A DNA stretch of 64,000 nt. Source: a virus (taxonomy: Duplodnaviria; Caudoviricetes). The number at the start of each line of letters is the position of its first letter. Within the stretch, counting starts at the first letter, position 1. Below, piece after piece: positions 11,708 to 56,843 of this stretch. The notes under the pieces were generated by a model that saw only the letters and a program-made list of their open reading frames with translations, ran no database searches and was not told the origin of the DNA. The position numbers and the translations under genes were made by a program. The stretch is taken from IMG/VR virus record IMGVR_UViG_3300035182_001152; one strand, given 5' to 3'.

Positions 11708-13036
11708 ATGTCAGCATATCAAATCGACTTCTCAGATCCACTCAAGAATGGTTTTGCCATTTCTGATGGTAGCTTTAACGGCCCAGGTGGCTCCTCTGCA
11801 AATACATCGCTACGGTTGTATGGCCGTGGCGCACGTGAATGGGGTGAGGCAGTTGACGAGGATTTGGTCCGTCTGACTGAAAACTTCGCTGCTGCTTCAG
11901 CACCAAGCGTGCCGATTGCAGGCCAATTCTGGGTTGAATCATCTCTGTACTACCGCGACACATCGCTGGGAAGCGTTCTGCAAGGTTGGTACTTCTACGA
12001 CGTCAATTCTGTAGCAACGAACAAGTGGACACTTCTTGGAGGCACTGGCGTTGTCTCTGGTACAGCTCCTCTGTCGCCAGTTGAAGGACAGTACTACTAT
12101 GACGGTGGTGTTAACCAGCTGCAGGGCTATTTCTCACTTGGCCGCTATGAACCTCTGACATGGGTCACTCGTTCCAGCATGTCAGGTACAGGTGCTCCCG
12201 TATCGCCAGCCGTAGTCCCTCTCCAACAACTTCGTGTGTGGAACGCAGGCACAAGCGCATGGGTTTCCCCTTCTGTCACAGCTGTCACTGGTGGCACCCC
12301 ACCAGTTGGTGCTGTAGTGGGTTCGTTGTGGTTTAACACCACTACAGGTAACCTGCTTGTTTGGACGGGGGCGCAATGGCAACAACTGGTAGGTCCTGCC
12401 ATTTCTGGCGGGACATCAGCTGTCTCTGGTATTCTGAACATGAATACCTACAAGATCACCAACCTCGGCGCCCCGTCAGTTAGTACCGACGCCGCAACCA
12501 AGGGATACGTTGACAGTGTTGTTGGCGGCGTCGGTGGCTTCCTACCGCTAACAGGTGGTAGTCTGGCTGGTCCAGGCAATCTGAGTGTTGGTGGCACGTT
12601 GAACGTTGCAGGACTGGCTACTCTCGGCTCGGGCTACGTAAACTCAACGTTCTACGCTAACGTTGCTACGTTTGGTAGCACGGCAACTTTCAACTCAGGT
12701 CTGACATCTGTTGGTACAATTAACATCACCACTGGTAGCCTAAACGTCGCTGCTGGCGGCGGTAGCTTCAACGGCACGGTCAACGTGAACGGCTACAAGA
12801 TTGTCAATCTTGCAACTGGTACAAACGCCAACGACGCTGTTAACGTAGCACAAATGAATGCTGCCATTGCGGCTGGTGGTGTGGGTGCAACAACACCTGT
12901 AATCTACACCTCAGGCACTTATAAGGCTGGCGACATCTGCATTACCGGCGGTAAGATCTACATAGCAGTCGGTGGCGGTAGCGGTATCGCCCCGGGTGGT
13001 AACTGGAAACAAATCTGGCCTGCAACATACAGCTAA
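11708..13036 (+). CDS. virion structural protein (tail fibre/baseplate type)
   Basis: LYGRGAREWGEAVDEDLVRLTENFA domain, KITNL..DAATKGYVD fibre repeats, Gly/Thr-rich, CATAAATA late promoter upstream. Confidence 0.75.
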   Translation: MSAYQIDFSDPLKNGFAISDGSFNGPGGSSANTSLRLYGRGAREWGEAVDEDLVRLTENFAAASAPSVPIAGQFWVESSLYYRDTSLGSVLQGWYFYDVNSVATNKWTLLGGTGVVSGTAPLSPVEGQYYYDGGVNQLQGYFSLGRYEPLTWVTRSSMSGTGAPVSPAVVPLQQLRVWNAGTSAWVSPSVTAVTGGTPPVGAVVGSLWFNTTTGNLLVWTGAQWQQLVGPAISGGTSAVSGILNMNTYKITNLGAPSVSTDAATKGYVDSVVGGVGGFLPLTGGSLAGPGNLSVGGTLNVAGLATLGSGYVNSTFYANVATFGSTATFNSGLTSVGTINITTGSLNVAAGGGSFNGTVNVNGYKIVNLATGTNANDAVNVAQMNAAIAAGGVGATTPVIYTSGTYKAGDICITGGKIYIAVGGGSGIAPGGNWKQIWPATYS

Positions 13037-13045
13037 AGCATAAAC

Positions 13046-14455
13046 ATGCCTCAAATCTCTACAACAACATCCGTTCCATCTGGATATGTAATCAGCACGA
13101 TGCAATCAGTCATCACTGCACTGATTGCAGCAATGGCAAGCGGCCAGACGGTGTATGCGTCTGACATTCGCTCAATGAACTCGAGTGTCTATGATCTCTG
13201 GCGAACCCACGCTCACACGGTGACAGACCGCCAAGGTATCGACACTTACGGTAACTTGACCGTGTACGGTAGCGGAGGAACGTCTATCGTCAACACCGCT
13301 TCAAACCTTGCGCTTGGCGCCGTGACAACTCCCTCTGGCATCGCTGCAGATCAAGTGATTACAGCCGCAGACATCAACGTGATGATTAACATGGTCAATT
13401 CCATGCAGTCACACACCCATACGATCACTGATAGTATCGGTGCTATATACTCGTCTCCAAACATCAATTTCTATTTCAATGGTTCTCCTAATCTGATCTC
13501 GGGTACAGACAGTGATGGCACTACCGGTGGCGATTATGCGAACATAACGTTTAAGACAGACGGGACGCTATTTCCCGAGGCACGTGGCACGTATTACTAC
13601 GGTGCAGTACAAGCTAACAACTGGATGACAAACAGCCCTGTTGATGCATTAACAGCTACAGGTTACCAGATTAAGGCACACATGGTAAGCGCAGATCTGG
13701 GGTATTGTCACTGGGGTGCTGGAACGTTTGACGCATGGTTGAATCTTGGTGTTAGTAACCTTGTTTGGTCGTGGGTGCAAAACAACGCGGGCGACTACGG
13801 TCAAGCAGTTGTTCAATTCCAAATCCGCGACATTAACACGCTAACGATTCTTGTTGACACACATGTGACTTTTCAAACCGGCTTTATTGCACCACTATCA
13901 CACTGCTGCTTCCCTGCGGATTCTTTCGTCTTAATGGACGATGGTAAGTGGAAGAAGATTCAAGACGTGAAGGCGGGTGATGTTGCCATGGGTATGGGCA
14001 AGCCCGTGATGATCAACAGCGTAGAGAAGCCACGTCTAGGCGAGCGCAGGATGATGCAATTTGGCGACAAGTCGCTGGCGTGGTCAGAAGAACACGCAAT
14101 GTGGACCCGCGACAACGCAGGTTCACAGTGGTGGTGGTCTGCTAACGCTGATATGTGGCGTGCTGAAGTGAGTGTAGGCGTAATGGGCGGGTTGAAGGAC
14201 AACTCAACGATGCGCTCTGGTACCAATGTGTCTGACTGGGCTCACCTGGATGGCTGGAAGGCTAATACTGTGACTACGATCCCTGCAGACGCAACGACTC
14301 CATTGTATCTCCCACGCACGGGCGGTTCTCCTATTATCGTCAACGGCTACGTTGTTGGCGCTGGTGTTGATGAAACCGGCTTTGAGTACTCAAAGCTGGA
14401 CTGGGATGCTGTACGCGCAATGCTTCCTGTTGTTGACCCACTCCCAACAGCGTAA
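13046..14455 (+). CDS. tail-associated protein with HxH repeats and C-terminal Hint domain
   Basis: THAHTVTD and SHTHTITD motifs; CFPADSFVLMDDGKWKKIQDVKAGD..SEEH..IIVNGYVV Hint fold starting at 13907. Confidence 0.75.
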   Translation: MPQISTTTSVPSGYVISTMQSVITALIAAMASGQTVYASDIRSMNSSVYDLWRTHAHTVTDRQGIDTYGNLTVYGSGGTSIVNTASNLALGAVTTPSGIAADQVITAADINVMINMVNSMQSHTHTITDSIGAIYSSPNINFYFNGSPNLISGTDSDGTTGGDYANITFKTDGTLFPEARGTYYYGAVQANNWMTNSPVDALTATGYQIKAHMVSADLGYCHWGAGTFDAWLNLGVSNLVWSWVQNNAGDYGQAVVQFQIRDINTLTILVDTHVTFQTGFIAPLSHCCFPADSFVLMDDGKWKKIQDVKAGDVAMGMGKPVMINSVEKPRLGERRMMQFGDKSLAWSEEHAMWTRDNAGSQWWWSANADMWRAEVSVGVMGGLKDNSTMRSGTNVSDWAHLDGWKANTVTTIPADATTPLYLPRTGGSPIIVNGYVVGAGVDETGFEYSKLDWDAVRAMLPVVDPLPTA

Positions 14456-14476
14456 GGTAATAACGAGGGAACAGAT

Positions 14477-14680
14477 ATGTCAGAAAACCTAAGTACAAAA
14501 ACGACGACATCCCCTGCGGTTCCGAATGTGAACCCAGGAGACCCAATTACGTCTACCACGTTTGAAGCAATGCTGAACGTGTTGAACGAACTCGTGAACC
14601 ACACTCACATTTTCTACGACGACTACAGCACTGCGTGCAACTGTAACTGCAACTGCGCCTGTTCACGCGGCATCCTCTAA
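14477..14680 (+). CDS. Cys-rich RiPP-precursor-like peptide
   Basis: 67 aa, GAGGGA RBS, ends TACNCNCNCACSRGIL, upstream of the radical SAM genes. Confidence 0.75.
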   Translation: MSENLSTKTTTSPAVPNVNPGDPITSTTFEAMLNVLNELVNHTHIFYDDYSTACNCNCNCACSRGIL

Positions 14681-14698: not shown

Positions 14699-15595
14699 AT
14701 GAAATACATCCTTGTTCGCCAAGGAGGTAATCGTGCTTCTGCCTTCTCAGACATCGTTGAGCAGGTCAATTATCAAGACGTACCCCAGGTTGGCTTCTAC
14801 ACGCAAGTAGCACCGAGTATGCGGTTAATTCGTAACCGCACTACCGACAATCACGATTCCCCCTTTGCGATTGCCCGATTCCACGTCGACCCAGCACTGA
14901 AGGTCCAGCCTCCGTCACACTTTCGTCGAATTGACATGAGGGCTGTCGAACGGATGATGACAAACCACAAGTACGTGATATACGGTGTCGTCAATCCAAC
15001 TCACCACGTAATTGATCACACAGTCCTTGACGGTGCTGTGTACGTCGCGCGGGATGCTGACGGTAAGTTGATCAATGCCCAAACAGGAGATGTCCTTGGT
15101 GACTCCAAGGTAACGTTTATGACGGTGTTCTTTGCGTTTGTGCGCGTCAAGGGGTTGCCGATCTATCTGATGGTACTCAATCCAAATCTACTCAGTGCGA
15201 CGGATGGGTTTGATTGTTATCACGAAGAAACGGACACCAAGTGGATCATGTTGCCGGAACGTGACAACGCGCTGATCGAGCGAGTGTTTACGCCGCAAAT
15301 ATATGACGGCACGTTGATTGGTAATGTGATTGTGCGCGATGAGGGTGATGGACAGCCGATGATCCAACTGTTCAACGATCCATGCGGCATCCTGTACGAC
15401 GAAAAGCACCTTCGCTCTGATGTGTTCATTAACGGTGTCGCAACGATTGATACCAATCTAAGCGTGTTTACAATGGACGGCGCTGTCCGCATTAGCAGTC
15501 AAGGCCGTGGGTACGTTCGAATTGTATTTGACCTTGGTGACTACTTCAATCTGTCACGGACCGAACACCCTGCACTGGAGTACGTCGTACTATGA
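14699..15595 (+). CDS. hypothetical protein of the radical SAM operon
   Basis: 298 aa, ATGA-coupled to the first rSAM. Confidence 0.7.
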   Translation: MKYILVRQGGNRASAFSDIVEQVNYQDVPQVGFYTQVAPSMRLIRNRTTDNHDSPFAIARFHVDPALKVQPPSHFRRIDMRAVERMMTNHKYVIYGVVNPTHHVIDHTVLDGAVYVARDADGKLINAQTGDVLGDSKVTFMTVFFAFVRVKGLPIYLMVLNPNLLSATDGFDCYHEETDTKWIMLPERDNALIERVFTPQIYDGTLIGNVIVRDEGDGQPMIQLFNDPCGILYDEKHLRSDVFINGVATIDTNLSVFTMDGAVRISSQGRGYVRIVFDLGDYFNLSRTEHPALEYVVL

Positions 15596-17262
15596 GCACA
15601 GCTGTCATTAAGTTCTACCCAAAGCGAACACTAACGCAAGCCCAACAGCAACGGATTGTTGATCACCAACCTTCCGTGCGAATCAATGACGACGGCACAT
15701 TTGATACGTCTGTCCGCACAATCATCACCCCAAAAGGCGATGTCAAGGAGGTGTCGTATAAGACGATTCGTCCAGGTGTGCACGAGCGAATGATGAAGAC
15801 AGCTGACGTATATGACTTGTTTGAAGACCTTCAACACATGAACCTGATTGTCACAAACGCGTGTAACCTCAGTTGTTCCTACTGCTACGAGCAGCATAAC
15901 AAAGATTACGGTCGATTCACAAACGAAAGCCTAAAACAGCTATACAACTTCCTCGTCGCGTGCAACCCAAACAGCGGCAAGCTGTTTCAGTTCTTTGGTG
16001 GCGAACCCCTGATCCACAAGCAGTTGATTCTCGATTTTATCGCCAAATATCGTGACGAACTGCAGGCAAACAGTAAGACAACTGCCGTTAGCATTATCAC
16101 CAACGGTATTCTGTTAACGCCAGAATTCATCAACGAGTACTTTGCGAATGACTTCGTTTGTATGAGCGTTAGCCTCGATACGGATGATGCTGAGATTGAT
16201 CACCGTGAGATTGGCCAGGCTCGGATCGACAAAATCATCAACATGATTGGTCTAATCCCCTCGTACCACAAAGACAATCATATGGTTAGCGTCCGTTGCA
16301 CGATCGCAATGGAGAATGCTCCGCGGCTAGTTGAGTTCGCCAAACGCTTGTATGACAAGGGTCTTCGAGCAATGGTAATTCATCCGCTGACGATGAGTTC
16401 CGTTAACGGCCACATGATATGGAATACTGAAGATTGGAACAACCTCCACACTAGCGTTAGCCACATCATCAAGACGCTGCCTAACTTCGAGGTTCAATTC
16501 TCAGAGGGTGTCGGTGCCAAGGGCGGCAACAACTGCATGGTTGGTTCTGACATGATCGCTGTTGACGCGTCGGGTGATTACTCCGGTTGCCATTTCTTCA
16601 CAAACCAGAAGGAGGCGGCCGCTCATACGATCCTTGGTAACTTGCTGCTGGACCAAGTGTACGTTGACCGGTACATGAAGTTCCAAGAAACGTACGACCA
16701 GATGTTCACATCGGAGCCACAATGTCAAGCCTGCGATCTCAAGGGTTTCTGCTACCAATGCCCTGCAGGCAATTCTGATTCTGGTCGTGGCCAGCTGTTC
16801 CGGCCAGACGATATGTGCCAGAGCATTGTACGTCTGTTCCTCGAACTGCAGAATGACATCGTGCGCAAGACATTCAACGCTAAGCTACAGGAGCTGATTG
16901 GTTCTGTACAGCAGTACGGTGAACACTATGTGTTCAGTAAGGCAATTGTACACCTCCACCACTTCTACAAGAATGGTCAGCATGCCACTGACGTTCAAGT
17001 TGATCCCAACCTCCCATACGAATACCTCGCCGCCGGTTTTATGGCAACAATTACCGGTGGCGACGCTAGCGTTCCGGTTGACATCAAGAGTTTGTATGAG
17101 GCGTTGATGCGCAGTAAGGGCAAACCAGTTAACGCGAGTATGGCACAGGGTACAGCTGATGACATCAACAAGCGTATCTTCTACCTAGCCCTACTACACA
17201 TGGTTGTGCTGAACAAGAAGGGTGATGACTTGTCAAAACCGCACAAAATCATTAAGCTGTAA
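15592..17262 (+). CDS. radical SAM/SPASM enzyme 1
   Basis: CNLSCSYC, FFGGEPL, TNG; SPASM CMVG..SGCHFF..CQAC..FCYQCP..C. Confidence 0.92.
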   Translation: MSTAVIKFYPKRTLTQAQQQRIVDHQPSVRINDDGTFDTSVRTIITPKGDVKEVSYKTIRPGVHERMMKTADVYDLFEDLQHMNLIVTNACNLSCSYCYEQHNKDYGRFTNESLKQLYNFLVACNPNSGKLFQFFGGEPLIHKQLILDFIAKYRDELQANSKTTAVSIITNGILLTPEFINEYFANDFVCMSVSLDTDDAEIDHREIGQARIDKIINMIGLIPSYHKDNHMVSVRCTIAMENAPRLVEFAKRLYDKGLRAMVIHPLTMSSVNGHMIWNTEDWNNLHTSVSHIIKTLPNFEVQFSEGVGAKGGNNCMVGSDMIAVDASGDYSGCHFFTNQKEAAAHTILGNLLLDQVYVDRYMKFQETYDQMFTSEPQCQACDLKGFCYQCPAGNSDSGRGQLFRPDDMCQSIVRLFLELQNDIVRKTFNAKLQELIGSVQQYGEHYVFSKAIVHLHHFYKNGQHATDVQVDPNLPYEYLAAGFMATITGGDASVPVDIKSLYEALMRSKGKPVNASMAQGTADDINKRIFYLALLHMVVLNKKGDDLSKPHKIIKL

Positions 17263-18050
17263 TGATGAAAACAACACACATTGCATTTTACCAAGACGCT
17301 CTGTACGACTGTCCTCTTCTCCGTGGTCAGGTGCTAACCGATATCGACGACCTGCGACTGTTCATGGAATATCACGCATTCGCAGTGTGGGATTTCATGT
17401 CGCTGATCAAATCGCTCCAGAACCATATTGTACCGTCGGGCAATGTGTGGCTTCCGTCACCCGAATCGACAGCTGTTGGTCGATTGATCAACGAAATTGT
17501 CCTGTGCGAGGAAACAGACGACAACCTCGGCGGTGGTCATATTAGCCACTTCGATCTGTACATCACTGCGATGAATGAAGTTGGCGCCAACACAAAGCCG
17601 ATCCTGTCATTCATCAACAAACTGCGAACCAATCGCAAGCTCAGCTTAAACCAGTTGCTGCTAGAACTCCCTCTGCCAGCACGGAAGTTCTGTGAGAGTA
17701 CTTTTGCAGTAATTGCTACCGATCAACCCCATAAGATTGCCGGGGCGTTCGCCTTTGGTCGCGAACGGGTAATCCCGTCAATGTTCACGCAGATCCTCTC
17801 TCAGATGGAGGCCACTGGAATCCAAGCACCAAAGTTCAAGTACTACCTTGAGCGTCACATTGACGTTGACGGGAACGCACACGGCCCAGCTGCGCTTGAT
17901 ATGGTTGATTATCTGTGTGGGGATGACCCAGTCAAGCACCTGGAAGCGGAACGAGCTGCATTGGATGCAATCCACGCTCGGATCACGCTATGGAAGGACG
18001 TACAGCGAGTGATTGAAGACGTCAAGCGTGTCAAGTTTGGAGCAGCATGA
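17262..18050 (+). CDS. DUF3050 heme-oxygenase-like (HDO) diiron protein
   Basis: FMEYHAFAVWDFMSLIKSLQ, INEIVLCEETD, SHFDLY, FAFGRE, YLERHIDVD..HGP. Confidence 0.8.
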   Translation: MMKTTHIAFYQDALYDCPLLRGQVLTDIDDLRLFMEYHAFAVWDFMSLIKSLQNHIVPSGNVWLPSPESTAVGRLINEIVLCEETDDNLGGGHISHFDLYITAMNEVGANTKPILSFINKLRTNRKLSLNQLLLELPLPARKFCESTFAVIATDQPHKIAGAFAFGRERVIPSMFTQILSQMEATGIQAPKFKYYLERHIDVDGNAHGPAALDMVDYLCGDDPVKHLEAERAALDAIHARITLWKDVQRVIEDVKRVKFGAA

Positions 18051-19120
18051 CGACACCAACACTCTCCGGATGCAAGAATATCAGCATCTACCTCGGCAAT
18101 GTTTGCAACTTCAATTGCACATATTGTGACAGAGACTACATCAAGGAGTCGATCGGTGGTCAACATATGACCACCGAGGATATTCCAAAGATCGTTGAGT
18201 TCCTCCAAGCTTCTGGTATAGCTGACAACCCCCCGGAAATGTTTAGCTTCCATGGTGGTGAGCCGTTCACATACGTCAAGATCATGGACAAAATCATGGA
18301 CGCAGTAACGTCAGCTGTCCCTGGCGACTATCCGCTATACATTCAAACGAATGGTAGCCAGATGCTTCAGCATCGATGGTTCTTTGAGAAGTGGGGTAGT
18401 CGCCTTGAGATTAGCATCAGCTACGACTTCTTGTACCAAGACATTAACCGCACCCTGTTTGAGATCAACCCTACGCTGGAAATGTTGAACCAGAACGGTG
18501 TTCGTGGAATCCAGTTCCAATACGTGATGCCAATCTCTAATCCGAAGGTGTTTAGCCTATCAGCATTGAAGGCGATCACTAACTTGTGCCACAAGAACGG
18601 TGTCAAACGGGTTAACCTAATCCCACTGCGGCACATTCGGGGCAAAGACAAGTTCAAGGTGATCCTTGACGACCTTGATATTCCACAGTTCTTCGATGCG
18701 TTCATCAAGTTCATCCACATGCTGTATGTGATGAACATTGACGTTACAGTTGATGGTCACGGTGTTGGATTTGACAAGCACTATTTCTACAACCATAAGT
18801 TAATGGTGTTGTCACCAGATGGTAACATCTATCCCGAATACGACTTCCTCGAATACAAGCGCGAAGAGACGATCATCGGTCAGTGGCGAGAGCAGCAAGT
18901 TATCGAGCGTGTCCGTGATAATGAAGATGACATGCTGCAACCGAAGTGTGTTACGTGCCCATCCCGCCCACTGTGTGGGCTAAAGTACTTACATGGGATG
19001 TTTGGTACTGACCCAGCAACGGATAAGTGTGCGCAGTTCTATCAGATGCTGATGGTTACGATCCAGCACGCACAAAAACTAAAACAACAACCAAGCTTCT
19101 TGCATTGGGTCGGAATATGA
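18047..19120 (+). CDS. radical SAM/SPASM enzyme 2
   Basis: CNFNCTYC, FHGGEP, QTNG; C-terminal CVTCPSRPLCG..C. Confidence 0.9.
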   Translation: MTTPTLSGCKNISIYLGNVCNFNCTYCDRDYIKESIGGQHMTTEDIPKIVEFLQASGIADNPPEMFSFHGGEPFTYVKIMDKIMDAVTSAVPGDYPLYIQTNGSQMLQHRWFFEKWGSRLEISISYDFLYQDINRTLFEINPTLEMLNQNGVRGIQFQYVMPISNPKVFSLSALKAITNLCHKNGVKRVNLIPLRHIRGKDKFKVILDDLDIPQFFDAFIKFIHMLYVMNIDVTVDGHGVGFDKHYFYNHKLMVLSPDGNIYPEYDFLEYKREETIIGQWREQQVIERVRDNEDDMLQPKCVTCPSRPLCGLKYLHGMFGTDPATDKCAQFYQMLMVTIQHAQKLKQQPSFLHWVGI

Positions 19121-20301
19121 CAACAGAACAACGGCACTTCACACCCAGTGTACAGAACGTAACGAACTTCAAGGAATACTTCCTACAGTACGACGGGTTG
19201 AATCACGTCAGCCAAGAGCTTGGCTTTTCCCTGTTTAAGCGGTACACGTGTAAAGCAGGATGCAAGATGTGTTACTTGCAGAACGACTGGATCGCTGACG
19301 AAGACTTCGGTATCTTCATTCCAAAGGAAATTGACGATCACACTGAAGCTCGCCTTTTGTCATTCTTTGAAGCGTTTTCTGACGTCGGCACGTATGATGA
19401 TTTGGCATATTTGAAACGAGCGCACCCACACCTGTATGAGTTCTACAAGAAGCACAGCCACCGCCTCGTTAATACATCAATGTCAGACACCGCTTTCATT
19501 CAGCAGTACCCACTGCTGATGAATGAGCTCAACTTCAAGGGAATCTACGAGATTACGTTTAGTGATGTGTTCCTAAACAAAAAGAGTGGTGGCTTAGCGC
19601 ATGATATAGTCAATATGCTGAAGCCTCTCCACGCAAAGATGCCCCTGCTAAAGATCAAGGTTGTACGAATCACACAGGAAGGTGAGAAGTCTGATGCCGT
19701 CAAGAAGGTCGTCGACTATGCACACAGTATTGGCATAGCAGTTGGCCTGCAAGACGATATCGTCAAGGGCGACAACAACAAGTTGAGCCTTGATGTTGCT
19801 GACTACCAAGAGCTGAATTATTTCGCTCAAGGGTCTGAGCCGATGCAGGTCCTATCAGAGATTACCTACCTGCAATACACGTCGTCGTTTATGACCCTGA
19901 CCGACACAGTATCGCCAACAAGTGTTCCATTCTTTGATGTATTGTCAACGGACGACATCAGCGTATTCCTGTACAACTCCTTAGATGCTAAGTTAAAGAC
20001 GTACACCCGATACACCAAGGAAATGGATAACACATGCGGCAACAAGCTGTTCGACTACTTTGCGTACGTATCAACGTCGGTTGTGCTACATCCAAAGTTT
20101 AACTTCATCCCCCGGATGTCGCTGAAGCCGTGGACGGCAATGTACCATAAGCTGATAGCTCAGGGTTGGACGGAGACCAAGCTTGGTCTGTATCGACCGA
20201 ACGGTGAGCCAGTGACACCAATCTTTACGATCAGCACAAAGCCAAAGCAGAAAATCTATCACATCCCAATCAAGTGCACTCCTGTAGGAGCAACTGTATG
20301 A
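19117..20301 (+). CDS. divergent radical SAM-like protein 3
   Basis: CKAGCKMC cluster motif; no GGEP or SPASM cysteines; ATGA-coupled. Confidence 0.65.
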   Translation: MTTEQRHFTPSVQNVTNFKEYFLQYDGLNHVSQELGFSLFKRYTCKAGCKMCYLQNDWIADEDFGIFIPKEIDDHTEARLLSFFEAFSDVGTYDDLAYLKRAHPHLYEFYKKHSHRLVNTSMSDTAFIQQYPLLMNELNFKGIYEITFSDVFLNKKSGGLAHDIVNMLKPLHAKMPLLKIKVVRITQEGEKSDAVKKVVDYAHSIGIAVGLQDDIVKGDNNKLSLDVADYQELNYFAQGSEPMQVLSEITYLQYTSSFMTLTDTVSPTSVPFFDVLSTDDISVFLYNSLDAKLKTYTRYTKEMDNTCGNKLFDYFAYVSTSVVLHPKFNFIPRMSLKPWTAMYHKLIAQGWTETKLGLYRPNGEPVTPIFTISTKPKQKIYHIPIKCTPVGATV

Positions 20302-21584
20302 GTCTGACCAAATTTGAGATCGTTCGCACAGGCGAACATTTCTACTACAACAACGAGAACAACGGCTTGCTGGACGCCAACGGTAACAGCCTTAGCCGTG
20401 CTTTTGTACCCCCAGCTGATTGGAATCAGCTGGAAGACCGATTCGGTCGCACAGATGTTGTCAAGAACCCCGAAACAATCAAGATCACCCTGGGGCACGG
20501 TTGCAATTACAGTTGTGGCTACTGCATGCAAAAGGACATTGGCAATCCCGACGAGCGACCGGTCAATGGTCTAACACCAATGCTGATCAGCAAGATCCGC
20601 CGCCACCTGGATCTGTCTGAGACGACACGGATTGAACTGTGGGGCGGTGAAACGCTACTGTATTGGAAAGACATGATGCCGATCATGGAAGAATTTGATC
20701 GTGAGGGAGTTACTTGGTACATCCCAACCAATGGTACTCCCCTGATGCACAAGCACATTGACTTCTTCATGAGGTTGAAGGGCAGGGTTGCAATGGGGAT
20801 CTCTCATGATGGGCCTGCGCATGAGATTACGCGAGGCAAGGAGTTCCTGCACAAGAAGGTTGACGTGTTCAAGCGGATCGAAACGGAGTGTGGTGAGCAG
20901 GTACAGTACAGCTTCAACCCCGTTATCAGTCGTACAAATTACGATCTGTTCGAGATCAACGACTTCTTTGTTCGATTCTTTGACGAGCACAGCTTGAAGT
21001 ACAAACAGCTGAGTTTCGAACTCGGGCGCGTGTACGACGAGACGATGGCAAAGAACTCAACGCACCACGTGATCAATGGTGAGCATATCCCAGCGTATAG
21101 GGACGTTCTGACGCGATACATGGATGCTCATATTGAGCAATTCCAACGGCTTGGTGGGGTTACACAAGCTCCCCTACTGGCGAACAATCTGTTCCATACA
21201 GGCATGGGCGTTCTCCCGTATGTGCGTTCGCTGCAGGAGCAAAAGGTTCCCTTGTTGAAGACGAACTGCGGGGTGGACGACAGTCGGTTGATGAGCATGG
21301 ACACGATGGGCAACGTCCGCACCTGCCAAAACACCGACGAATCGTACAATGGCGGCAACTTGATGTACATCAAGGGCATTCGAATCCAACGTGTTGATCT
21401 CAATCGTGATGCACACTGTGGGTCATGTGAAGTCCGTCGTCTCTGCAAGAGCTCATGCCCACTTGACCTCGGATCGGCAACGTTCCAAACCAATTGTGCT
21501 GTTGAGAAGACGCACTACCGGGCGATCCAGTTGGCTGCATTCAAGTTGTTGTTTGACAGTGAGATTCGCATGATTGGCCAGTGA
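20298..21584 (+). CDS. radical SAM/SPASM enzyme 4
   Basis: CNYSCGYC, LWGGETL, PTNG; CGVDD..RTCQN..CGSCEVRRLCKSSCP..NC. Confidence 0.9.
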   Translation: MSLTKFEIVRTGEHFYYNNENNGLLDANGNSLSRAFVPPADWNQLEDRFGRTDVVKNPETIKITLGHGCNYSCGYCMQKDIGNPDERPVNGLTPMLISKIRRHLDLSETTRIELWGGETLLYWKDMMPIMEEFDREGVTWYIPTNGTPLMHKHIDFFMRLKGRVAMGISHDGPAHEITRGKEFLHKKVDVFKRIETECGEQVQYSFNPVISRTNYDLFEINDFFVRFFDEHSLKYKQLSFELGRVYDETMAKNSTHHVINGEHIPAYRDVLTRYMDAHIEQFQRLGGVTQAPLLANNLFHTGMGVLPYVRSLQEQKVPLLKTNCGVDDSRLMSMDTMGNVRTCQNTDESYNGGNLMYIKGIRIQRVDLNRDAHCGSCEVRRLCKSSCPLDLGSATFQTNCAVEKTHYRAIQLAAFKLLFDSEIRMIGQ

Positions 21585-21653: not shown

Positions 21654-23465
21654 ATGACCAATTACGTATTCAAGCACAGCGACCCTGCAGCAGGTTCGTT
21701 TCTAGTTCAAGCAGACCAGATCGACGGTACGTCGCGTCCTGGTAATGCGGCATTGTACATCAACCCCGTCTCAGGCCTCTCTGCAATCTCAGCCAATTCC
21801 TCTCTCGTCTTCGCTGGACAGGGAATTGTTGACTACGGCGAACTAGTGCAGAACAATCTGATCTACTTGATGGAGCACTTTGCCTATGCAACACGCCCTC
21901 TAAAGCCTGTACAGGGTCAGATTTGGTACAAAAACGCAGCAGGTGTAGACCCGTCCTTCCCGAGCGACCCATCTTCGGTCGGTCTTTATCTGTGGACAGG
22001 ATCACTCTGGACGCCGATCATTACTGGTGCAGGCGGCGTACTTGACATGGGCGGCGCTCGTGTAGCTAACGTTGGAGATGCAATATCCGCCGGTGACGCA
22101 GTTAGCCGTGGCTACGCAGATGCACGCTACTTGCAGCTGTCTGGCGGCACAATGACCGGTGCAGTTATGGTTGCATCAGGCAACTGGACATTTAATTCCG
22201 GCGTTTCTCTGTCAGTGACAAACGCTCCGACAACCAGTTTGCATGTTGCCAATAAGGCATACGTAGACGCTGCTTCTGCCACGTCTGCCGGCCTAGTTTC
22301 TACTGAAGCTACTACCCGCGCAGCAGCTGATAGCGCACTTTCGTCCAGCATCTCTACGATCAACTCACAACTGCCAAACTTTGTTCAAGTTACTGGCGAT
22401 ACGATGACAGGCACACTGTCGATCGACTCTGGCGGTGGTATCGTTGCCCTCAACGGTTCCGGCACTATTAGTTTTGGCTCTCGTCGCTTGCAGCTCGTCG
22501 GAGACCCTATTCTAAACACTGACGCGGCAAACCGAATCTACGTTGATACAGCGATCGCTACGGCAATTGCGGGCGTTGGCGCTGGATCTAGTGATGGTGT
22601 AGTTGTTAGTGGTGACTTGAATTCATCAACTGGCGTGTTGACTCTTCAGCGCAGCATGGGTCTCTCAGACGTGGTTGTAGTCGGCTCGTTCGCTCCATTC
22701 TCACACGCCCACCCTGCGACCGCGGTTACATACGATCTGTCGTACGTGTATCCACAAAGCTACTTGACGACGTCGGAAGTAGGTGACACAGGCTTCCCCA
22801 ATGTCCAACTGCAAGACATTATTCGCACAATTGACCAAAATTTGACGACATTGAACCGTTGCGTTGTTCGCAAATTGGCCGTCGGCGACGGCATAACTAC
22901 TACATATTCCGTAGGCGCTGTTGGTACCTACACTGTGGGAGATAATCGTCTGCAGGTGTTTGTTGATGGTGTCAAACAGTACGCTAGTGAGCACGGGATC
23001 AGCACTGTTGTATTCACAGATACGGGTATTGGATATCGATCAGTAATCCCAGGCGTCACGGGTGCGCCTCTCGTGTTCAACATCGCAGTGGACAGTGGTC
23101 CTCCAACAACTGTTTCAATTCCAACAGGGGCGGGATACACGTACTTGCAGTATTTCATTGACCTGCAGGCTGCTTTTAGTACACTGTCTATCCCTGCACA
23201 AGTTCGTGCGGACCAATTCTTTGACCGCATTGAGTTGTACTTTGTGTCCAACACTTCAGGTGCAGGATCTAGTGTATTAGTATCAAACACAGCAGGCCAA
23301 GCTTTTACTGTGATTACCACAGCGTCTGCGCCTGTTAACACGTCTGTGACAACGTCATACTCCTACAGCGAAGTCGGCAACCCTGGTGCAGATTCAACCT
23401 CCATCACATTCAACGTAGCACCTGATGCGGGTTCTGTTGTTGAATTTCTAACCTTCCCTGCTTAA
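21654..23465 (+). CDS. virion structural protein, paralogue of 11708..13036
   Basis: FAGQGIVDYGELVQNNLIYLMEHFA, repeated DA..K/RxYVD fibre motifs, CATAAATA promoter at 21613. Confidence 0.75.
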   Translation: MTNYVFKHSDPAAGSFLVQADQIDGTSRPGNAALYINPVSGLSAISANSSLVFAGQGIVDYGELVQNNLIYLMEHFAYATRPLKPVQGQIWYKNAAGVDPSFPSDPSSVGLYLWTGSLWTPIITGAGGVLDMGGARVANVGDAISAGDAVSRGYADARYLQLSGGTMTGAVMVASGNWTFNSGVSLSVTNAPTTSLHVANKAYVDAASATSAGLVSTEATTRAAADSALSSSISTINSQLPNFVQVTGDTMTGTLSIDSGGGIVALNGSGTISFGSRRLQLVGDPILNTDAANRIYVDTAIATAIAGVGAGSSDGVVVSGDLNSSTGVLTLQRSMGLSDVVVVGSFAPFSHAHPATAVTYDLSYVYPQSYLTTSEVGDTGFPNVQLQDIIRTIDQNLTTLNRCVVRKLAVGDGITTTYSVGAVGTYTVGDNRLQVFVDGVKQYASEHGISTVVFTDTGIGYRSVIPGVTGAPLVFNIAVDSGPPTTVSIPTGAGYTYLQYFIDLQAAFSTLSIPAQVRADQFFDRIELYFVSNTSGAGSSVLVSNTAGQAFTVITTASAPVNTSVTTSYSYSEVGNPGADSTSITFNVAPDAGSVVEFLTFPA

Positions 23466-45890: not shown

Positions 45891-46175
45891 TCGAACTCCT
45901 TGACGGGAATGATCCGGTACCACTTTTTCATCACGTACAGCCAGATGCCGCCGTGCTTGAAGAACTTCGGTGACCGCCAGACCAATTTCATCATTTCACC
46001 CGCAACACAGTGACCGCCAGGTCGGCGAAGTGGACCACATCGACAACTACGACTAGGTGGTCACGCACGCGAACCTTTTCACCGATTCGTGGCAGCACCT
46101 CGAGGTGGCGCCGCAGTCCATCAAAGGGAGTGGCGTTGGTAGATCTAACCAACGATTGGAATTCTGTCAACACGC

Positions 46176-46409
46176 TCATGCTCGCTCTCCGCTGCTGCTG
46201 GATGTGTGCCATACTGTTTGGATGCACTGCTCGCGCAACACTCGCAGCTCTTCTTCCAGCTCCTGGATTCGACGTGCTGCAGCGCGCATGTCTGCACCTG
46301 CAAGGTACACAGTACCTGACTTCTTGTCTTCATACGTCAGTAACATTGGATACATGGTCAGACGGGCAACTAGCTGCTCACTGGTCAGCGGCGGGTTGGA
46401 GCGTGCCAT
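46176..46409 (-). CDS. hypothetical protein
   Basis: 77 aa, AARRIQELEEEL coiled coil. Confidence 0.5.
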   Translation of the reverse strand: MARSNPPLTSEQLVARLTMYPMLLTYEDKKSGTVYLAGADMRAAARRIQELEEELRVLREQCIQTVWHTSSSSGERA

Positions 46410-46467
46410 TTGTGTACTTTCAGAGCTGTTAAACGATGACCGACTATAGAGGAAGGCGACTCCGTAG

Positions 46468-47001
46468 TCAATTTTGGGTCAAATCGATTGTTGGCATCGG
46501 AAAGCCGTACTTGACCATGAAGGGATCGGGTTTCATTCGATCCAAATCAGCAACTTTTTCTTCCCGGGGGGCGGGATGATTCTTGATCTGCGCGGACGAG
46601 AACAACACGCCCATTGCATCGCGCGCTGTTGCAGCACGTCGTGCCTTAAAGATTTCGTTGTATTTGCGTATCCGTTCCGGATACTTGTCGCTTGCTGCCT
46701 TATACGTATCGGGAGGCAGCGGAGATGGATCGCCAAACGAATTGGGATTTGTAGCGCGATTCTCGTCTCTGACAGTACGTGCCTCTTCCCGGGTCTCACA
46801 CTCTGCAATCTTCGTGTATTTGACGGAGGACATGTCTCCGTTATACAGAGCGCGGAACCGTACGTCAAACCGTGTCACTTCCGAGGCAGTAGTTCGAGCG
46901 CTGCTGAATTCGAGCCATTCTTTGGCCTTGTCCAGGCCACCTTCAACGTATCCAATGTAAACTGGGTCTTGCGACCCTTTCGCTGCGTATACTGTAAACA
47001 C
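46468..47001 (-). CDS. hypothetical protein, possibly degenerate GIY-YIG
   Basis: FTVYAAK..PVYIGYV N-terminus. Confidence 0.5.
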   Translation of the reverse strand: MFTVYAAKGSQDPVYIGYVEGGLDKAKEWLEFSSARTTASEVTRFDVRFRALYNGDMSSVKYTKIAECETREEARTVRDENRATNPNSFGDPSPLPPDTYKAASDKYPERIRKYNEIFKARRAATARDAMGVLFSSAQIKNHPAPREEKVADLDRMKPDPFMVKYGFPMPTIDLTQN

Positions 47002-47274
47002 ACTAGTCTCCGGAAGTTGTGATAATCAACCTTCCGAGAAATCGGTTATCCAGTAAACAACCAATAAAAGGGGAACGCCTGTGGCTCGTGGCCACAGGCG
47101 TTCCATGTTGGGGAGGTTACCTGACCTTGATCAGGCTGAAGCAGCCACCCACGCTGCCGGCGGTAGACACAAGGGCCCACGGCCAAAACGCAGACTCCGT
47201 GACGCTCCAGTCGGAGATCCAGCCGCCGAGCAGAAACACGGCAATGGAAACCAAAGTTGAGCAAATTATGAATT

Positions 47275-47697
47275 TCATGCGGACACCAGTTGCGTCAGAT
47301 TGACGCCCTCGCGATGAGCGAACGAGAGGTTCTCGTACGAAATCGTCACCAGGCCTGCGCGCCGGAGTTCTTCCAGGGGCAGGAGGATGGCGGTCAGGTA
47401 TTCCATCGCCTCGTTCACGTAGTCGTTGGTCAGATCCTCAACGTCCTCACCCTCGGCGGCGAGCAGCATCATCGTCAGGACGATCATGTCGCGGCCCGCT
47501 TGATCCTCAGCAGCAGCTTCAGTGACGTGATGTTGGACTTGCGCAGCGACCTTGTTGAGATCGTGCACATCGAACAGCGACAGGCCAGACAGCCAATCGC
47601 CGAGCGTGAGGTAGTTGCCGACGTTCTCACGCAGTCGGAGCTGCAGACGTGCGACAGCCTTGGCTGCCACGTCCGACAGATTGTTTTCTTGTTCCAT
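47275..47697 (-). CDS. hypothetical protein
   Basis: GAGGA RBS before ATG 47697. Confidence 0.6.
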   Translation of the reverse strand: MEQENNLSDVAAKAVARLQLRLRENVGNYLTLGDWLSGLSLFDVHDLNKVAAQVQHHVTEAAAEDQAGRDMIVLTMMLLAAEGEDVEDLTNDYVNEAMEYLTAILLPLEELRRAGLVTISYENLSFAHREGVNLTQLVSA

Positions 47698-47848
47698 TAC
47701 GCACGCCTTCCTCTTTGCAGTTGCTCTTATGAAAGCTGAATGTGCATCAACTCTCATATCGTACCCGTGAGGGTAAACACCCATTGCCACATCGAAAGTA
47801 GAAGCTCCGTTGGACGTTCCCCCGTCCAACGGACTCCGCGGCGATCGA

Positions 47849-48058
47849 TCAGCGCTTGCGAGTGGTAGGCGCGAACAGCGGCTTGGCGTTGTTGGTCGAC
47901 GTCGACGTCTTGGACAGGCCGGTGCCGACACCGGGGCCGTTGTCATGGACCACGACCTGCGGCTGCTGGTAGATCACCTGCGGTTGCGGTGAGGGGCCAC
48001 AGCCGATCAGGGGTATTGCCATCACGGCAACGGCGAGCATGGTAAGGCGGAATTTCAC
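47849..48058 (-). CDS. small lipoprotein
   Basis: Signal peptide with lipobox LIGC. Confidence 0.55.
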   Translation of the reverse strand: MKFRLTMLAVAVMAIPLIGCGPSPQPQVIYQQPQVVVHDNGPGVGTGLSKTSTSTNNAKPLFAPTTRKR

Positions 48059-48172
48059 AAGCGATCTCCTCTTGGATATGTGACAGAAGCGAGTCTACCG
48101 ATTCCCACGCTTAGTAGCAAATCGGTAGATTTAGGGTAAACCCAGCGGCCTCGCTATTAGGTGTTGGGAGTA

Positions 48173-48733
48173 TCAAATAGTCGGGTCAAACGCGTTTGAC
48201 AGATTCTCACGCTGCTGTTCCGGCGTTTGCTTAATGCCATAGCATTTGTCGATCGCTTGAAGAACAACAGCAGTAATGTGGTTGAACACCGCATCCGTCC
48301 CGCCAAGTTCGCCGCTACTCTCGATGATGTCTCGTAGACATTGATTCAAGTGCCCCTCGATGCACATCGCGTTCTTGATGTCCTGCGCTGACGGTGCGGG
48401 AGTGTTTTCAACGAGGATCGATTCCCACTTGGTCGTCTTTGAGTCGAGGTAGTCTTCCAGCATCTCTGCCAGCTCCGCTCCCGTCTTGTTGGGATAGACG
48501 AGGGCTGCGAGGGCGATTGCGTTCTGGATCACGTCCGCTACTTCACCAATCACCGGCTCCTTGAGCGTCTTGTGTGGCAGATTGCCGAGGCTGTGATTTA
48601 CGGCCTCAGATAGCTCCCCCACTTCTTCCATTAGCTTAAAGCCAACGCCTTCAATGCCCTTGAAGTCTCGGCGCGACATGCCGACGATTCGGTCGACCGT
48701 CTGATACAGTGATGGGTGCTTAATGACTTCCAT
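48173..48733 (-). CDS. MazG-like nucleotide pyrophosphohydrolase
   Basis: KLMEEVGELSEAV..EVADV. Confidence 0.75.
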   Translation of the reverse strand: MEVIKHPSLYQTVDRIVGMSRRDFKGIEGVGFKLMEEVGELSEAVNHSLGNLPHKTLKEPVIGEVADVIQNAIALAALVYPNKTGAELAEMLEDYLDSKTTKWESILVENTPAPSAQDIKNAMCIEGHLNQCLRDIIESSGELGGTDAVFNHITAVVLQAIDKCYGIKQTPEQQRENLSNAFDPTI

Positions 48734-49190
48734 CGTCTGCCCCACAGTCACACGAGTGGCCGCAAGCGTCTTGGCCAGCAAAGTAGTGCTCGGCCCACTG
48801 TGCATGCAGAGGGAAGCAGATCGGGGTGTTGGCATCGATCGCAACCAGCTCTTGAACTTCGTCGTTCTTGACGAACAATTCCAGCGCTTCCAAGGGGAGC
48901 GCGTATTCGGCCGCCAGCATGATCAGCAGACGATTGGTCGGCGTCACTTCCGTGCCAGCAACGATCCAATGTTCCGCAGGGATGTGCAGGCCGGTTTCCT
49001 CTTCGAGTTCCCGCGCCATTGCGGCCTCTGCGGTTTCACCCGCATTAAGGTAGCCTCCGGGGAAGGCGATCCCGCCAATTTGCGGCTCGATGTTGCGGCG
49101 AACACCGAGCAGAAAGGTATCACCAGTCTTTTCGTTGACGAGTTCGATGATGCCGACGGCGACGGGGACGGGGTTGTTGTATTGTTCCAC
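48720..49190 (-). CDS. Nudix hydrolase
   Basis: PGGYLNAGETAEAAMARELEEETGL Nudix box. Confidence 0.9.
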   Translation of the reverse strand: MEQYNNPVPVAVGIIELVNEKTGDTFLLGVRRNIEPQIGGIAFPGGYLNAGETAEAAMARELEEETGLHIPAEHWIVAGTEVTPTNRLLIMLAAEYALPLEALELFVKNDEVQELVAIDANTPICFPLHAQWAEHYFAGQDACGHSCDCGADDGSH

Positions 49191-49604
49191 GGTGATCCTT
49201 TATTTCATGAGAAGTTGCGTTGTTGCCGAAACAAGCACGACAACGACGGGGGGAGTGCGACAGTCCACGATGGGCGCATGGGTGGCGACATGCAGAGGAT
49301 TGAATTGAACCGTTGGTATGCAAATACGCCGTACCCGACTAGCATTGCACCAACGTACCACCCAAGGCCGAACACTAGGGCGTGTTTGATGATTTCCGAC
49401 ATCAGTTCATCCTGCAGGTAGAGACGAACATCGCCGTCCCGTTTGTGCCGCGGGTGACTTGGCTCGTCATCGTCGTGCTGTAGCAACTGTCTGAGTACTT
49501 CTTGTACTGTTGCGTCACCTCATGACGGTAGCCGTAAAAGTACGAACCCAAGAAGGCAGCAGCCAACAGCACGAGAATCGCAGCAACGGATGCGTATAGC
49601 TTGA

Positions 49605-50036
49605 TCATTTGATTTCCTTGATAGAGCCGTAGTCGTATTCGTATTTGACGTTTGGCTTGATTCCGTCAACGCCCACGGTGAACACAATTACCGTTTCGTT
49701 GAACCCCATTGGATACCACAGCTCGAATGTTGCACCATCGCCACCCGATACTGTTCCGTAGTCATGCAACACGGCAGTTCCACCAGCGCCGGTTACAACT
49801 TCACCACCGGCACCTGCTTCTGATCGCCCAAAGTTTCCTGATTGGGCAACCCCGTACAATCCTGCCTTTGCCGCGCCGTGATCGCCGACGATCGATGTGC
49901 CGTAGCGACCTGAGATTGCTGTTCCACAGTTTCCAGCAACGGCGCGAGCAAGGTTGCCGTCGCCTGTGTGAGCTAGCTCGTTGTCACCAACGATGACAAC
50001 TTGATTGTCCATTCCCTTGCGCGACATCAGGTCCAC
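49605..50036 (-). CDS. Gly/Ala-rich short-repeat protein
   Basis: Repeating octamer-like xGxxGxA units; VGVDGIKPNVKY end. Confidence 0.6.
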   Translation of the reverse strand: MDLMSRKGMDNQVVIVGDNELAHTGDGNLARAVAGNCGTAISGRYGTSIVGDHGAAKAGLYGVAQSGNFGRSEAGAGGEVVTGAGGTAVLHDYGTVSGGDGATFELWYPMGFNETVIVFTVGVDGIKPNVKYEYDYGSIKEIK

Positions 50037-50192
50037 CCCAGGGCTACAGCGGCGAGCACGGATACAGCAATTACACTAAGAACGATCCACATTCCGGTGT
50101 TGCTTTCCGCGGCGGTGCCGCTATCATATTCAATCATCACAGGCTCCCTCGTTCGTTAGATGAGTCTACTGTACCGAAACCCAAAAATAGAT

Positions 50193-50486
50193 TCAACCAA
50201 AAATTGGGCCGGCGTACTGAACTCCAGTTGCTGGTTTTGGTAGGTGTTGTTCGTCGGAAGGGTGCATTTCACCGGCAGCACGGCCAAGGGTGCCGTAATA
50301 CTCATCATCTTCCACTGCAATGACGGCAATCTGCTTCATCGTCTGTTGGTAAGTCGGCGAAGGGTTTTGGTTTTTGATCACCATACAGTGTGTGCTCTCA
50401 CCAGCAGCCTCACGGTCGAGCTTAGACAGTAGGGCTAGCAAATTCCGACGGCTAAGATATACTTTTGGCGTTGAATTCGTGATCAT
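50193..50486 (-). CDS. hypothetical protein
   Basis: 97 aa. Confidence 0.55.
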   Translation of the reverse strand: MITNSTPKVYLSRRNLLALLSKLDREAAGESTHCMVIKNQNPSPTYQQTMKQIAVIAVEDDEYYGTLGRAAGEMHPSDEQHLPKPATGVQYAGPIFG

Positions 50487-50688
50487 TTGATTTATCCTGA
50501 TTCCCCATCATCACTATCTCTCCACAGGGGGACAACTTCCGATAAGTGTTACATCCCAATCCCCAGAGCTCCAATGACACAACAGGTTGACTTGTCAACC
50601 GGCGTACACTTGGTAGGTGACACCATGCTCCCAAAGAGATACGTTGACGATGCTGTTGTAACTGAAAGGCGTCTCCCAGCGCCTTTGA

Positions 50689-51858: not shown

Positions 51859-52346
51859 GAACGGTTGTTCAACAGCCGGGATGATCACACGCCGTCCCTG
51901 AACAGCTTGACGAGTCCGACGATCACGGTTATGCCAAACAGCATGTAGAAGCCGAACACCACTCCTGCGCCAATCAGTGCGCCCGTCAGGAACGCGCTGC
52001 AGCTCAGACCACCAATAAAGGCGCCGATTGCAGCGCCTGCACACATCCATTTCAACATTGTTTTTCTCCTGTGAAAATCCGTATACGTGAGCAGGTTGGT
52101 GAATCGATGTGTTACACTTACACCAGCAGTCAGCATGTCCCTTATCCGGAAAGGTCCACGTTTATCTAACGCCCTGCTCGTTACGCAGGATAACCGAAGC
52201 TCAAATCCAACTCTGCTCGCGTATACAGACGAGGATGGGGCTGTGATTCTGGCCGCCCCACCTTTTTGACGTTTCCAGGCAAACAGTGCAGCAATACGTA
52301 GCACCACACGTATTGCTGCTGGATTATGAGACCAGCAGCAAATCGC

Positions 52347-52586
52347 TTACTTGCGACGGGCCGGGAAGCCGTTGTCGTGACCGCCGGAGCGGCTGTTGTA
52401 CGAGTGCGTGCGTTCGTTCGCACGTTCGCCGAACTTCGGATGATCCGGGCCCTTCGACACGGTGAACTTGTAGTGCTCCGGCTTGTCGTCCTTTGCGGGG
52501 ACCTTCGCACCGCGAGCGACCTTCGCCGCCTCCTTGGTTTCGAAGTATTGGACCGGGGTGGTGTTCAGTTGATAGATGCGCTTCAT
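52347..52586 (-). CDS. small basic hypothetical protein
   Basis: GGAG RBS, MKRIYQLN. Confidence 0.55.
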   Translation of the reverse strand: MKRIYQLNTTPVQYFETKEAAKVARGAKVPAKDDKPEHYKFTVSKGPDHPKFGERANERTHSYNSRSGGHDNGFPARRK

Positions 52587-52649
52587 GGCCTTTGCTCCAC
52601 GCTGTTGATGAAAATTGTTCGGACATTGCCCATTAGGCAATCTGCGAAC

Positions 52650-53160: not shown

Positions 53161-53429
53161 TCGTTCAACCGATGAATCTATTCTATGGAGAAACCCTAAT
53201 TAACGCAACCGACTAACGGGTGTAAACGTAAACCAGCGGAGATGGCCGATCACCACGTTGTTCTGCTTGATCGTCAGGCGAGCCCCAACCGCCCATGCAA
53301 CAGCAAGAGCAGACAGTAGCAACCCGATCAGGATCACAGCCAGCACGACCATCGCTGGGACGAGTACGCAAGCTAGTGCGATCTTTGCAACTGCACCAAA
53401 GAATTGACCGAGCACGATCAGTAGTTGTT

Positions 53430-53612: not shown

Positions 53613-53663
53613 TTTACGTCACCAGTTACACAAAGTACTGATATCGTATAGGTCACCCTGTTA

Positions 53664-55208: not shown

Positions 55209-55220
55209 GTGTACTCCTTG

Positions 55221-55523: not shown

Positions 55524-55538
55524 CTATACACCTTCGGT

Positions 55539-56840: not shown

Positions 56841-56843
56841 CGA

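Follow-up and report, generated by a model that had tools for sequence, protein, structure and literature searches.

A small Cys-containing polypeptide that is cross-linked by a radical S-adenosylmethionine (rSAM) enzyme of the SPASM type and then kept as a permanent subunit of a complex is known from the QhpC/QhpD system of quinohemoprotein amine dehydrogenase, and precursor peptides whose leader is homologous to a stand-alone protein domain are known from NHLP and Nif11. To our knowledge, the NHLP and Nif11 leaders are recognition handles, and we know of no case in which they assemble with the parent protein. The present analysis concerns a stretch of 64,000 nucleotides from a Caudoviricetes virus (IMG/VR record IMGVR_UViG_3300035182_001152; the whole stretch is hereafter called the window) in which the gene for a 469-residue protein with two HxH modules is followed by the gene for a 67-residue peptide, which carries one such module and a Cys-rich tail, and then by a cassette of rSAM genes. 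Two other described systems are close to this locus: the maturase NxxcB forms Asn-Cys beta-thioethers at NxxC motifs (PMC9389541), and in the phi11 receptor-binding protein a triple-helix bundle ends in six His residues that hold Fe3+, and the spikes of P2, phi92 and T4 are known to have HxH sites as well (PMC4901313).

The locus joins two of these kinds, the six-His (His6) site of fibres and the rSAM-modified peptide, in an unusual way. As in the T4 gp37 tip, P2 gpV, phi92 gp138 and the phi11 stem, paired His residues would come from three equivalent units around a threefold or pseudo-threefold axis and would be backed by a second-shell acid, the nearest structural precedent being the phi11 receptor-binding protein, whose site caps a triple-helix bundle as it is predicted to do in our model; unlike those fibre and spike sites, the units here are split two plus one over two genes, or joined three in one in a natural fusion (P0182), and the metal is a putative one. 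As in QhpC/QhpD, the peptide is proposed to stay bound as a cross-linked subunit, although there is here no dehydrogenase partner, the peptide is another one, the context is that of a phage and several rSAM enzymes are present. With the PapB ranthipeptides and the NxxcB peptides, which belong to the peptides made by ribosomes and modified after translation (RiPPs), the locus shares a precursor gene next to SPASM maturases and a Cys/Asn spacing that gives three NxxC motifs; it differs from them in that the leader is a conserved fold unit found also without core or enzymes, in that the core is almost invariant rather than variable, and in that its cluster yielded neither a protease nor an exporter. 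Unlike what is seen with NHLP and Nif11, finally, the gene for the parent protein is a neighbour every time, and a fusion of the two is known. The reading that we prefer, with a probability of roughly 0.6, is that the two gene products form a 2+1 pseudo-trimer with a six-His metal site, in which the modified peptide stays as a subunit.

A third HxH module in a separate gene

The gene pair and its modules are laid out in the window as follows.

13046..14455, plus strand: 469-residue protein with an N-terminal two-module domain (phrog_31780, E-value 1.8e-13 over residues 5-129)
13130..13234, plus strand: HxH module 1, residues 29-63 (His55 at nucleotide 13208, His57 at 13214, Asp61 at 13226)
13334..13438, plus strand: HxH module 2, residues 97-131 (His123 at nucleotide 13412, His125 at 13418, Asp129 at 13430)
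14477..14680, plus strand: gene of the 67-residue peptide, which ends HTHIFYDDYSTACNCNCNCACSRGIL, with a GAGGGA ribosome-binding site upstream
14522..14626, plus strand: third HxH module (the "leader"), peptide residues 16-50 (His42 at nucleotide 14600, His44 at 14606, Asp48 at 14618)
14627..14677, plus strand: Cys-rich tail STACNCNCNCACSRGIL, peptide residues 51-67 (Cys54, 56, 58, 60 and 62 at nucleotides 14636-14662)

Each module comprises about 33 residues, in which G-x-x-[IV]-x-A is followed by a helix and then by HxHxxxD, and both His residues and the Asp are invariant in all 37 modules of an alignment with few gaps. An earlier note on this DNA had set three segments side by side, and these lie where it had placed them (module 1, residues 33-61, nucleotides 13142-13228; module 2, residues 102-129, nucleotides 13349-13432; peptide, residues 21-48, nucleotides 14537-14620); the common HxH..D end that it described is borne out by the 37 aligned modules, and the central Met, invariant within the peptide family only, is generally just a conserved hydrophobic position (L/M/F/I/V).

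In BLASTP, residues 2-48 of the peptide align to residues 85-129 of the 469-residue protein, which contain module 2, with an E-value of 2e-5, and in the orthologous pair of the Ralstonia jumbo phage RP12 the peptide matches both modules (6e-7 and 2e-6). When profiles were compared with hhalign, the peptide family (31 sequences) matched the two-module family (12 sequences) with 95.2% probability and an E-value of 2.7e-8, and splitting the profiles related module 1 to module 2 (97.3%, 2e-11), the leader to module 1 (91.6%, 8e-7) and the leader to module 2 (96.1%, 3.6e-9); the Cys core, compared in the same manner with modules 1 and 2, matched neither. Likewise, a hidden Markov model (HMM) made from modules of other phages only and run against all 1274 six-frame segments of the window gave 41.0 bits for module 2, 36.1 for module 1 and 16.1 (E-value 7e-4) for the peptide, the next segment reaching 6.3. 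Profile similarity among the three segments was the very ground on which the earlier note had asked to be judged, and its finding survived in BLASTP, in hhalign (92-97% probability, E-values of 8e-7 to 2e-11) and in the window scan. The motif residues are also fixed within each family: His55, His57, His123 and His125 in 90 sequences of the two-module protein, and His42, His44 and Asp48 in 31 sequences of the peptide, with exactly two His residues in 64 of 67 peptides. Sequence comparison therefore confirms that the "leader" of the peptide is a true third copy of the helix-HxH-strand module.

Pairing, fusion and tail-less forms across phages

The 469-residue protein is made up of the N-terminal two-module domain (residues 1-135), a middle domain (136-287) and a C-terminal Hint-like domain (288-469). 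Its N-terminal part is 34% identical to the 125-residue RP12 ORF074 (E-value 2e-20) and belongs to a family whose members match the 125-position phrog_31780 profile from end to end and contain two HxHxxxD motifs. According to an exhaustive profile search this family is confined to phages and comprises 274 representative clusters at 50% identity, almost all of them stand-alone proteins of 120-157 residues, and exactly two modules are present in 138 of the 150 listed representatives; a word-based search with the 135-residue N-terminal piece gave no matches, and Pfam and NCBIfam hold no model for the modules of this protein or for the peptide. One candidate, P0161 (1049 residues, 17 stretches), lacks HxH and was dropped as a repeat protein of no relation. 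In some members a foreign domain is present, which lies between module 1 and module 2 in P0094, P0099 and P0135 and at the N-terminus in P0166, and others have C-terminal additions such as the middle and Hint domains of the window; since a domain is inserted between the modules of P0094, the two modules must meet in space. The insert of P0094 (L020 41-1210) is a repeat domain of about 250 residues with a faint Lactonase match that suggests a beta-propeller.

The peptide family comprises 67 clusters at 90% identity, each with one module and many on contigs of 200-360 kb, and among 185,579 species genomes the peptide is present on one contig, within the same phage-type cluster. No match was found to any Pfam or NCBIfam model, including those for NHLP and Nif11 leaders. 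In all 18 lineages with readable context (the window, RP12, L002, L004, L006, L008, L009, L010, L013, L015, L017, L018, L019, L021, L022, L023, L025 and L031) the one-module peptide gene adjoins the two-module gene or lies at most 1 kb from it. RP12 has a syntenic cluster in which ORF074 consists of just the two modules and is followed by a 65-residue peptide gene; this gene, at L001 10001-10198 (AP017924.1 82888-83085), is unannotated in the GenBank records of RP12 and RP31, where it falls between ORF074 and ORF075. phrog_31780 itself, of which ORF074 is a 125-residue member, is a PHROG without function, and no earlier record connects it with the unannotated peptide gene. The order of the two genes is reversed in L022, and L021 has two tandem two-module genes, of 257 and 131 residues.

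Three variants bear most directly on what the third module does. P0182 (332 residues) is a natural fusion in which a leader-type module shares one chain with module 1 and module 2: the class HMMs give 30.8 bits for module 1, 27.1 for module 2 and 24.2 for the leader class, as against 6.6-6.7 from the other classes, and a fibre gene follows directly; MAFFT aligned the peptides to module 2 and not to module 3 of this chain. The contig L025 is collinear gene by gene with positions 2217-26156 of the window, at 25-68% amino-acid identity (37-68% for the genes that flank the pair), and between its fibre orthologues it encodes only the two-module protein and a 52-residue peptide that ends DDYS-stop, with the orthologue of the 603-residue fibre-like protein directly after it; L025 has no Cys run in any frame, no counterpart of window positions 14699-21584 and no rSAM genes within 10 kb, and a search for relatives of its peptide gave just low-complexity partial matches. 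In L023, a two-module and Hint protein like that of the window precedes a 55-residue Cys-free peptide ending DDYTLTS-stop, on a contig that stops before any rSAM genes could appear. The fusion and the tail-less variants indicate, therefore, that the module of the peptide is an autonomous unit accompanying the two-module protein, and, as far as gene content goes, the Cys tail travels with the rSAM cassette.

Structural models

An AlphaFold2 model of the two-module domain (residues 1-135, from 90 sequences) reached a predicted local distance difference test (pLDDT) score of 86.2 and a predicted template modelling (pTM) score of 0.71. In this model each module is a unit of helix, HxH and strand (helix 38-53 and strand 58-64 in module 1, helix 107-121 in module 2), and both module helices pack with the N-terminal helix within one chain, which does not agree with the idea of modules as beta-needle repeats of a homotrimer. 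A profile search of PDB sequences with the domain gave nothing below an E-value of 0.97, Foldseek against the PDB gave E-values above 4, and VIA-align gave Z of 4.7 or less; the matches of the model in the PDB and in the AlphaFold DB clusters were merely of a generic helical kind, and the sole match of a BFVD fold search was the RP12 orthologue. The parallel with T4 gp37 that had been drawn earlier is thus not matched by sequence or fold homology to gp37 or to any other solved fibre in the PDB profile, Foldseek and VIA-align searches.

A complex of the two-module domain, the peptide and one iron was also modelled, and it scored 0.64 against 0.01 for the best control, a mark attained by 58 of 80 solved complexes and by 2 of 110 mismatched pairs. 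At least 82% of the contacts are common to its three runs, with a partner pLDDT of 68 or more. The predicted interface takes in residues 5-50 of the peptide only, with the peptide helix packed on each of the partner's three helices, and His44 would touch both His57 and His125, thereby bringing the three HxH motifs into contact.

The enzyme cassette and the tail

The genes that follow the peptide in the window are these.

14699..15595, plus strand: 298-residue protein, at the start of the gene cassette that accompanies the Cys tail
15592..17262, plus strand: radical SAM/SPASM enzyme, 556 residues (Pfam Radical_SAM, E-value 8e-16)
17262..18050, plus strand: DUF3050 (MgoB-like) protein (PF11251, E-value 2e-81)
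18047..19120, plus strand: radical SAM enzyme, 357 residues (Pfam Radical_SAM, E-value 4e-10; phrog_1802, 7e-35)
19117..20301, plus strand: phrog_36229 protein with CKAGCKMC, a CxxxCxxC motif (phrog_36229, E-value 1.8e-47; no Pfam match)
20274..21584, plus strand: radical SAM/SPASM enzyme, 436 residues (Pfam Radical_SAM, E-value 3e-8; SPASM TIGR04085, 2.5e-4)

In the window and in 16 other lineages three rSAM genes and a further rSAM-like gene lie after the peptide gene. The 556-residue enzyme is kept in all loci with a Cys tail, and the 357-residue rSAM enzyme, the phrog_36229 protein (possibly a divergent rSAM enzyme) and the 436-residue enzyme are conserved across loci. The 298-residue gene follows the peptide in most rSAM-bearing loci and is missing in L025; its product has no Pfam, PHROG or NCBIfam match, and an Atlas search gave no usable lead. 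The DUF3050 gene is found in 5 of about 17 lineages (the window, L004, RP12, L018, where it is on the opposite strand, and L019) and is lacking in the other loci. In L021, three genes of the fatty-acid desaturase family and one of the Asp/Arg hydroxylase family precede the cluster (113-2936).

The tail core, C-N-C-N-C-N-C-A-C, has five Cys residues and three overlapping NxxC motifs (N55-C58, N57-C60 and N59-C62), and C56, C58, C60, C62, N55, N57, R64 and G65 are invariant in the peptide family; variant cores elsewhere swap Asn for Glu, Gln, Asp, Ala or Thr, as in CECQCNC of L021 and CECEC of L022. For the 556-residue enzyme the best NCBIfam match is the PapB ranthipeptide maturase (E-value 1.2e-36; 126.7 bits, below the cut-off of 340), followed by QhpD (2.7e-23; 82.4 bits, below 453), and the SCIFF maturase model gives 70.3 bits, below its cut-off of 425. 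Thioether cross-links are to be expected because PapB and QhpD, the nearest families, form thioethers and because NxxcB acts on NxxC. By analogy with these enzymes, the CNCNCNCAC tail, an added extension, probably receives cross-links from the rSAM enzymes, the most plausible kind being Cys-to-Asn thioethers at its three overlapping NxxC motifs. Literature searches on the CNCNCNC motif and on radical SAM enzymes and RiPPs in phages and their virions turned up no description of the peptide or the module, and the RP12/RP31 paper gives the rSAM genes merely as isolated homologues and does not annotate the peptide.

Surrounding genes and the Hint-like domain

The elements on either side of the pair, and the C-terminal domain of the 469-residue protein, are as follows.

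11708..13036, plus strand: fibre-like protein, 442 residues (phrog_2710, tail fiber, E-value 1e-12; YadA_stalk, 9e-6)
13907..14455, plus strand: Hint-like autoprocessing domain of the 469-residue protein, beginning at Cys288 (first residue of CFPADS, after SHC)
21654..23465, plus strand: fibre-like protein, 603 residues (phrog_14394, virion structural protein, E-value 1.8e-7)

The label "fibre", which had been given to the 469-residue protein itself, is better supported for these flanking genes at 11708-13036 and 21654-23465. The two are paralogues; orthologues of the 442-residue protein flank the gene pair in L002, L004, L013, L017 and L025, and the 603-residue protein is 37% identical to its L025 orthologue over residues 2-602. 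The upstream fibre-like proteins of the window and of L025 (8787-9980) share the C-terminal motif W-K/R-Q-I-W-P-A-T-Y-S, which the C-terminus of RP12 ORF073 (WRQFWPPVWQ) resembles. The window is part of a large phage genome and also encodes a UvsW-like helicase, a clamp loader and a tyrosyl-tRNA synthetase, the last of these on the minus strand at 50689-52050; G+C rises from about 0.48-0.52 to 0.55-0.60 across the last 18 kb (46000-64000), and megablast of the cluster against phage genomes found no near relative.

The Hint-like domain scores 17.9 bits with the Pfam Hint model (E-value 0.0024), below the cut-off of 29.7, and shares 40-45% identity with a protein region of Achromobacter phage JWF, among the annotated features of which is a Hom_end-associated Hint family protein. 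Cys288, the Hint Cys1, is kept in four Hint-bearing relatives, and Hint-less orthologues (L004/P0070, 294 residues) end near the Cys288 junction, which fits a self-cleavage that would free the part made of the two-module and middle domains. Its distribution marks the Hint-like domain as a lineage-specific addition outside the conserved pair. Hint-domain proteins of about 320 residues without HxH modules occur in other phage contigs (L029 8530-10910), one such gene being directly followed by an rSAM gene related to the 436-residue enzyme (E-value 1.7e-29), and a search for relatives of P0107 returned solely Hint-domain proteins without modules.

Discussion

What is shown is that the modules are homologous, that the genes are strictly paired, that a fusion occurs in nature, that variants without Cys and without the enzymes exist and that the monomer can be modelled with confidence, and together these points suggest that the two gene products dock together and that the front half of the peptide is not a throw-away leader. 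We propose that the two products assemble 1:1 and that the three module helices would pack as a pseudo-threefold bundle, with two modules in cis and one in trans. This would bring together the three HxH motifs, whose six invariant His residues would probably coordinate a single metal ion in octahedral fashion, with the invariant Asp that follows four residues later as second shell. Such a site would be the heteromeric counterpart of the His6-metal sites that phage fibres and spikes have on their threefold axes. The two-module protein would act as a scaffold that displays variable domains, inserted between the modules or C-terminal, differing among phages; in rSAM-bearing lineages the third module would bear the Cys-Asn tail (residues 51-67), which would project from the complex and would probably be cross-linked by three or four rSAM/SPASM enzymes, and the modified peptide would remain attached, being neither cleaved nor released. 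The earlier note had offered, as one of two options, that the peptide is a mini structural subunit which co-assembles with its neighbour and carries a Cys-rich end, and this option is supported by the P0182 fusion, by the Cys-free peptides of L025 and L023, by gene adjacency in every lineage checked and by a heterodimer model that passes its controls.

Several points weigh against this proposal. The metal, the modification chemistry and a place in the virion near the fibres are deduced, and the heterodimer and the clustering of His residues are modelled; the position of the peptide in the complex model may come from analogy with the paralogous modules, the controls of the model were unrelated proteins, its calibration excluded custom alignments and a riding metal, and its coordinates and iron position were not viewed. 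All rSAM matches are far below the family cut-offs, so that the proposed chemistry is tentative. There is only one fusion among 150 representatives, and L021 has two two-module genes per peptide, so that the stoichiometry is not always a simple 2+1. Finally, mass spectrometry of RP31 virions did not list ORF68-70, the fibre and two-module orthologues, in a list of 32 proteins only, from which a small cross-linked peptide is likely to have been missed (PMC5468394 Table S3).

A classical RiPP pathway, in which the module is a leader recognised by the rSAM enzymes or by the 298-residue protein and removed after modification, while the two-module protein binds the same enzymes as second substrate, decoy, regulator or chaperone, appears unlikely to us. 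The locus does have the look of one, given that rSAM/SPASM enzymes, with peptide maturases as their nearest families, come after a short precursor, that the 556- and 436-residue enzymes have about 70-85 residues ahead of CxxxCxxC, where recognition domains often sit, and that leaders homologous to whole proteins exist, as in NHLP and Nif11. However, in the collinear L025 the one-module peptide persists in the same place with neither Cys tail nor rSAM genes, and the leader-type module is also found fused to two modules in P0182. Conservation, moreover, runs continuously along the peptide, from Met32 through HTH, FYDDY and the Cys-Asn run up to RG, and thereby across the supposed leader-core junction (HTHIFYDDYSTACNC), where no cleavage motif is seen, and scans with Pfam, PHROG and NCBIfam found no peptidase, exporter or transporter family in the cluster. 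No Cys at all is present in 105 of the 126 stand-alone two-module proteins, which are therefore unlikely to be Cys-type substrates; this count and the persistence of the module without enzymes weaken the second option of the earlier note, namely that the motif is an enzyme-recognition sequence and the large protein a substrate as well. Modification of a RiPP type can nonetheless coexist with docking, because the complex itself may be what the enzymes act on.

It is also conceivable, if improbable, that each protein trimerises alone and that the shared module is a general trimerisation and metal-binding unit instead of a docking surface, in which event the two-module protein would have two His6 sites and the peptide trimer one. 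In all solved HxH/His6 sites of phages the axis is indeed the true threefold one of a homotrimer (PMC4901313), the genes next to the pair are fibre-like, and L021 has two two-module genes for one peptide. Against this, the monomer model (pTM 0.71) packs modules 1 and 2 together in one chain, the natural three-module chain matches a 2+1 count, independent trimers need no strict one-to-one gene adjacency, and the heterodimer, the one oligomer that was modelled, passes its controls. That the peptide is simply a duplicate of the second half of the upstream gene, its likeness having no present function, is very improbable: the best alignment of the peptide over its full length, Thr-rich N-terminus included, is to the linker together with module 2, as a partial duplication in tandem would give, but all three classes have retained His, His and Asp without exception in lineages no more than 25-40% identical, and 18 lineages have retained the pairing, whichever gene comes first (L022), neither of which neutral relics would keep.

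Conclusions

The preferred 2+1 assembly can be carried one step further, and we do so tentatively: the split pseudo-trimer may be a metal-locked adaptor on the receptor side or associated with the fibres, a permanent virus subunit finished by RiPP-type chemistry, in which the leader would be a docking domain that is never removed. The locus would in that event offer a concrete case of a RiPP-like leader as a folded docking module, which, if true, would change how such precursors are read in genome mining. The results further suggest that chains which differ from one another can make up the threefold His6 metal lock known from phage fibres, and they point to radical SAM cross-linking as a means by which phages finish a structural component. 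They also define, beside a peptide gene without annotation in RP12 and RP31, two phages that are in culture and can be used for genetics and proteomics, a phage-only family of 274 clusters.

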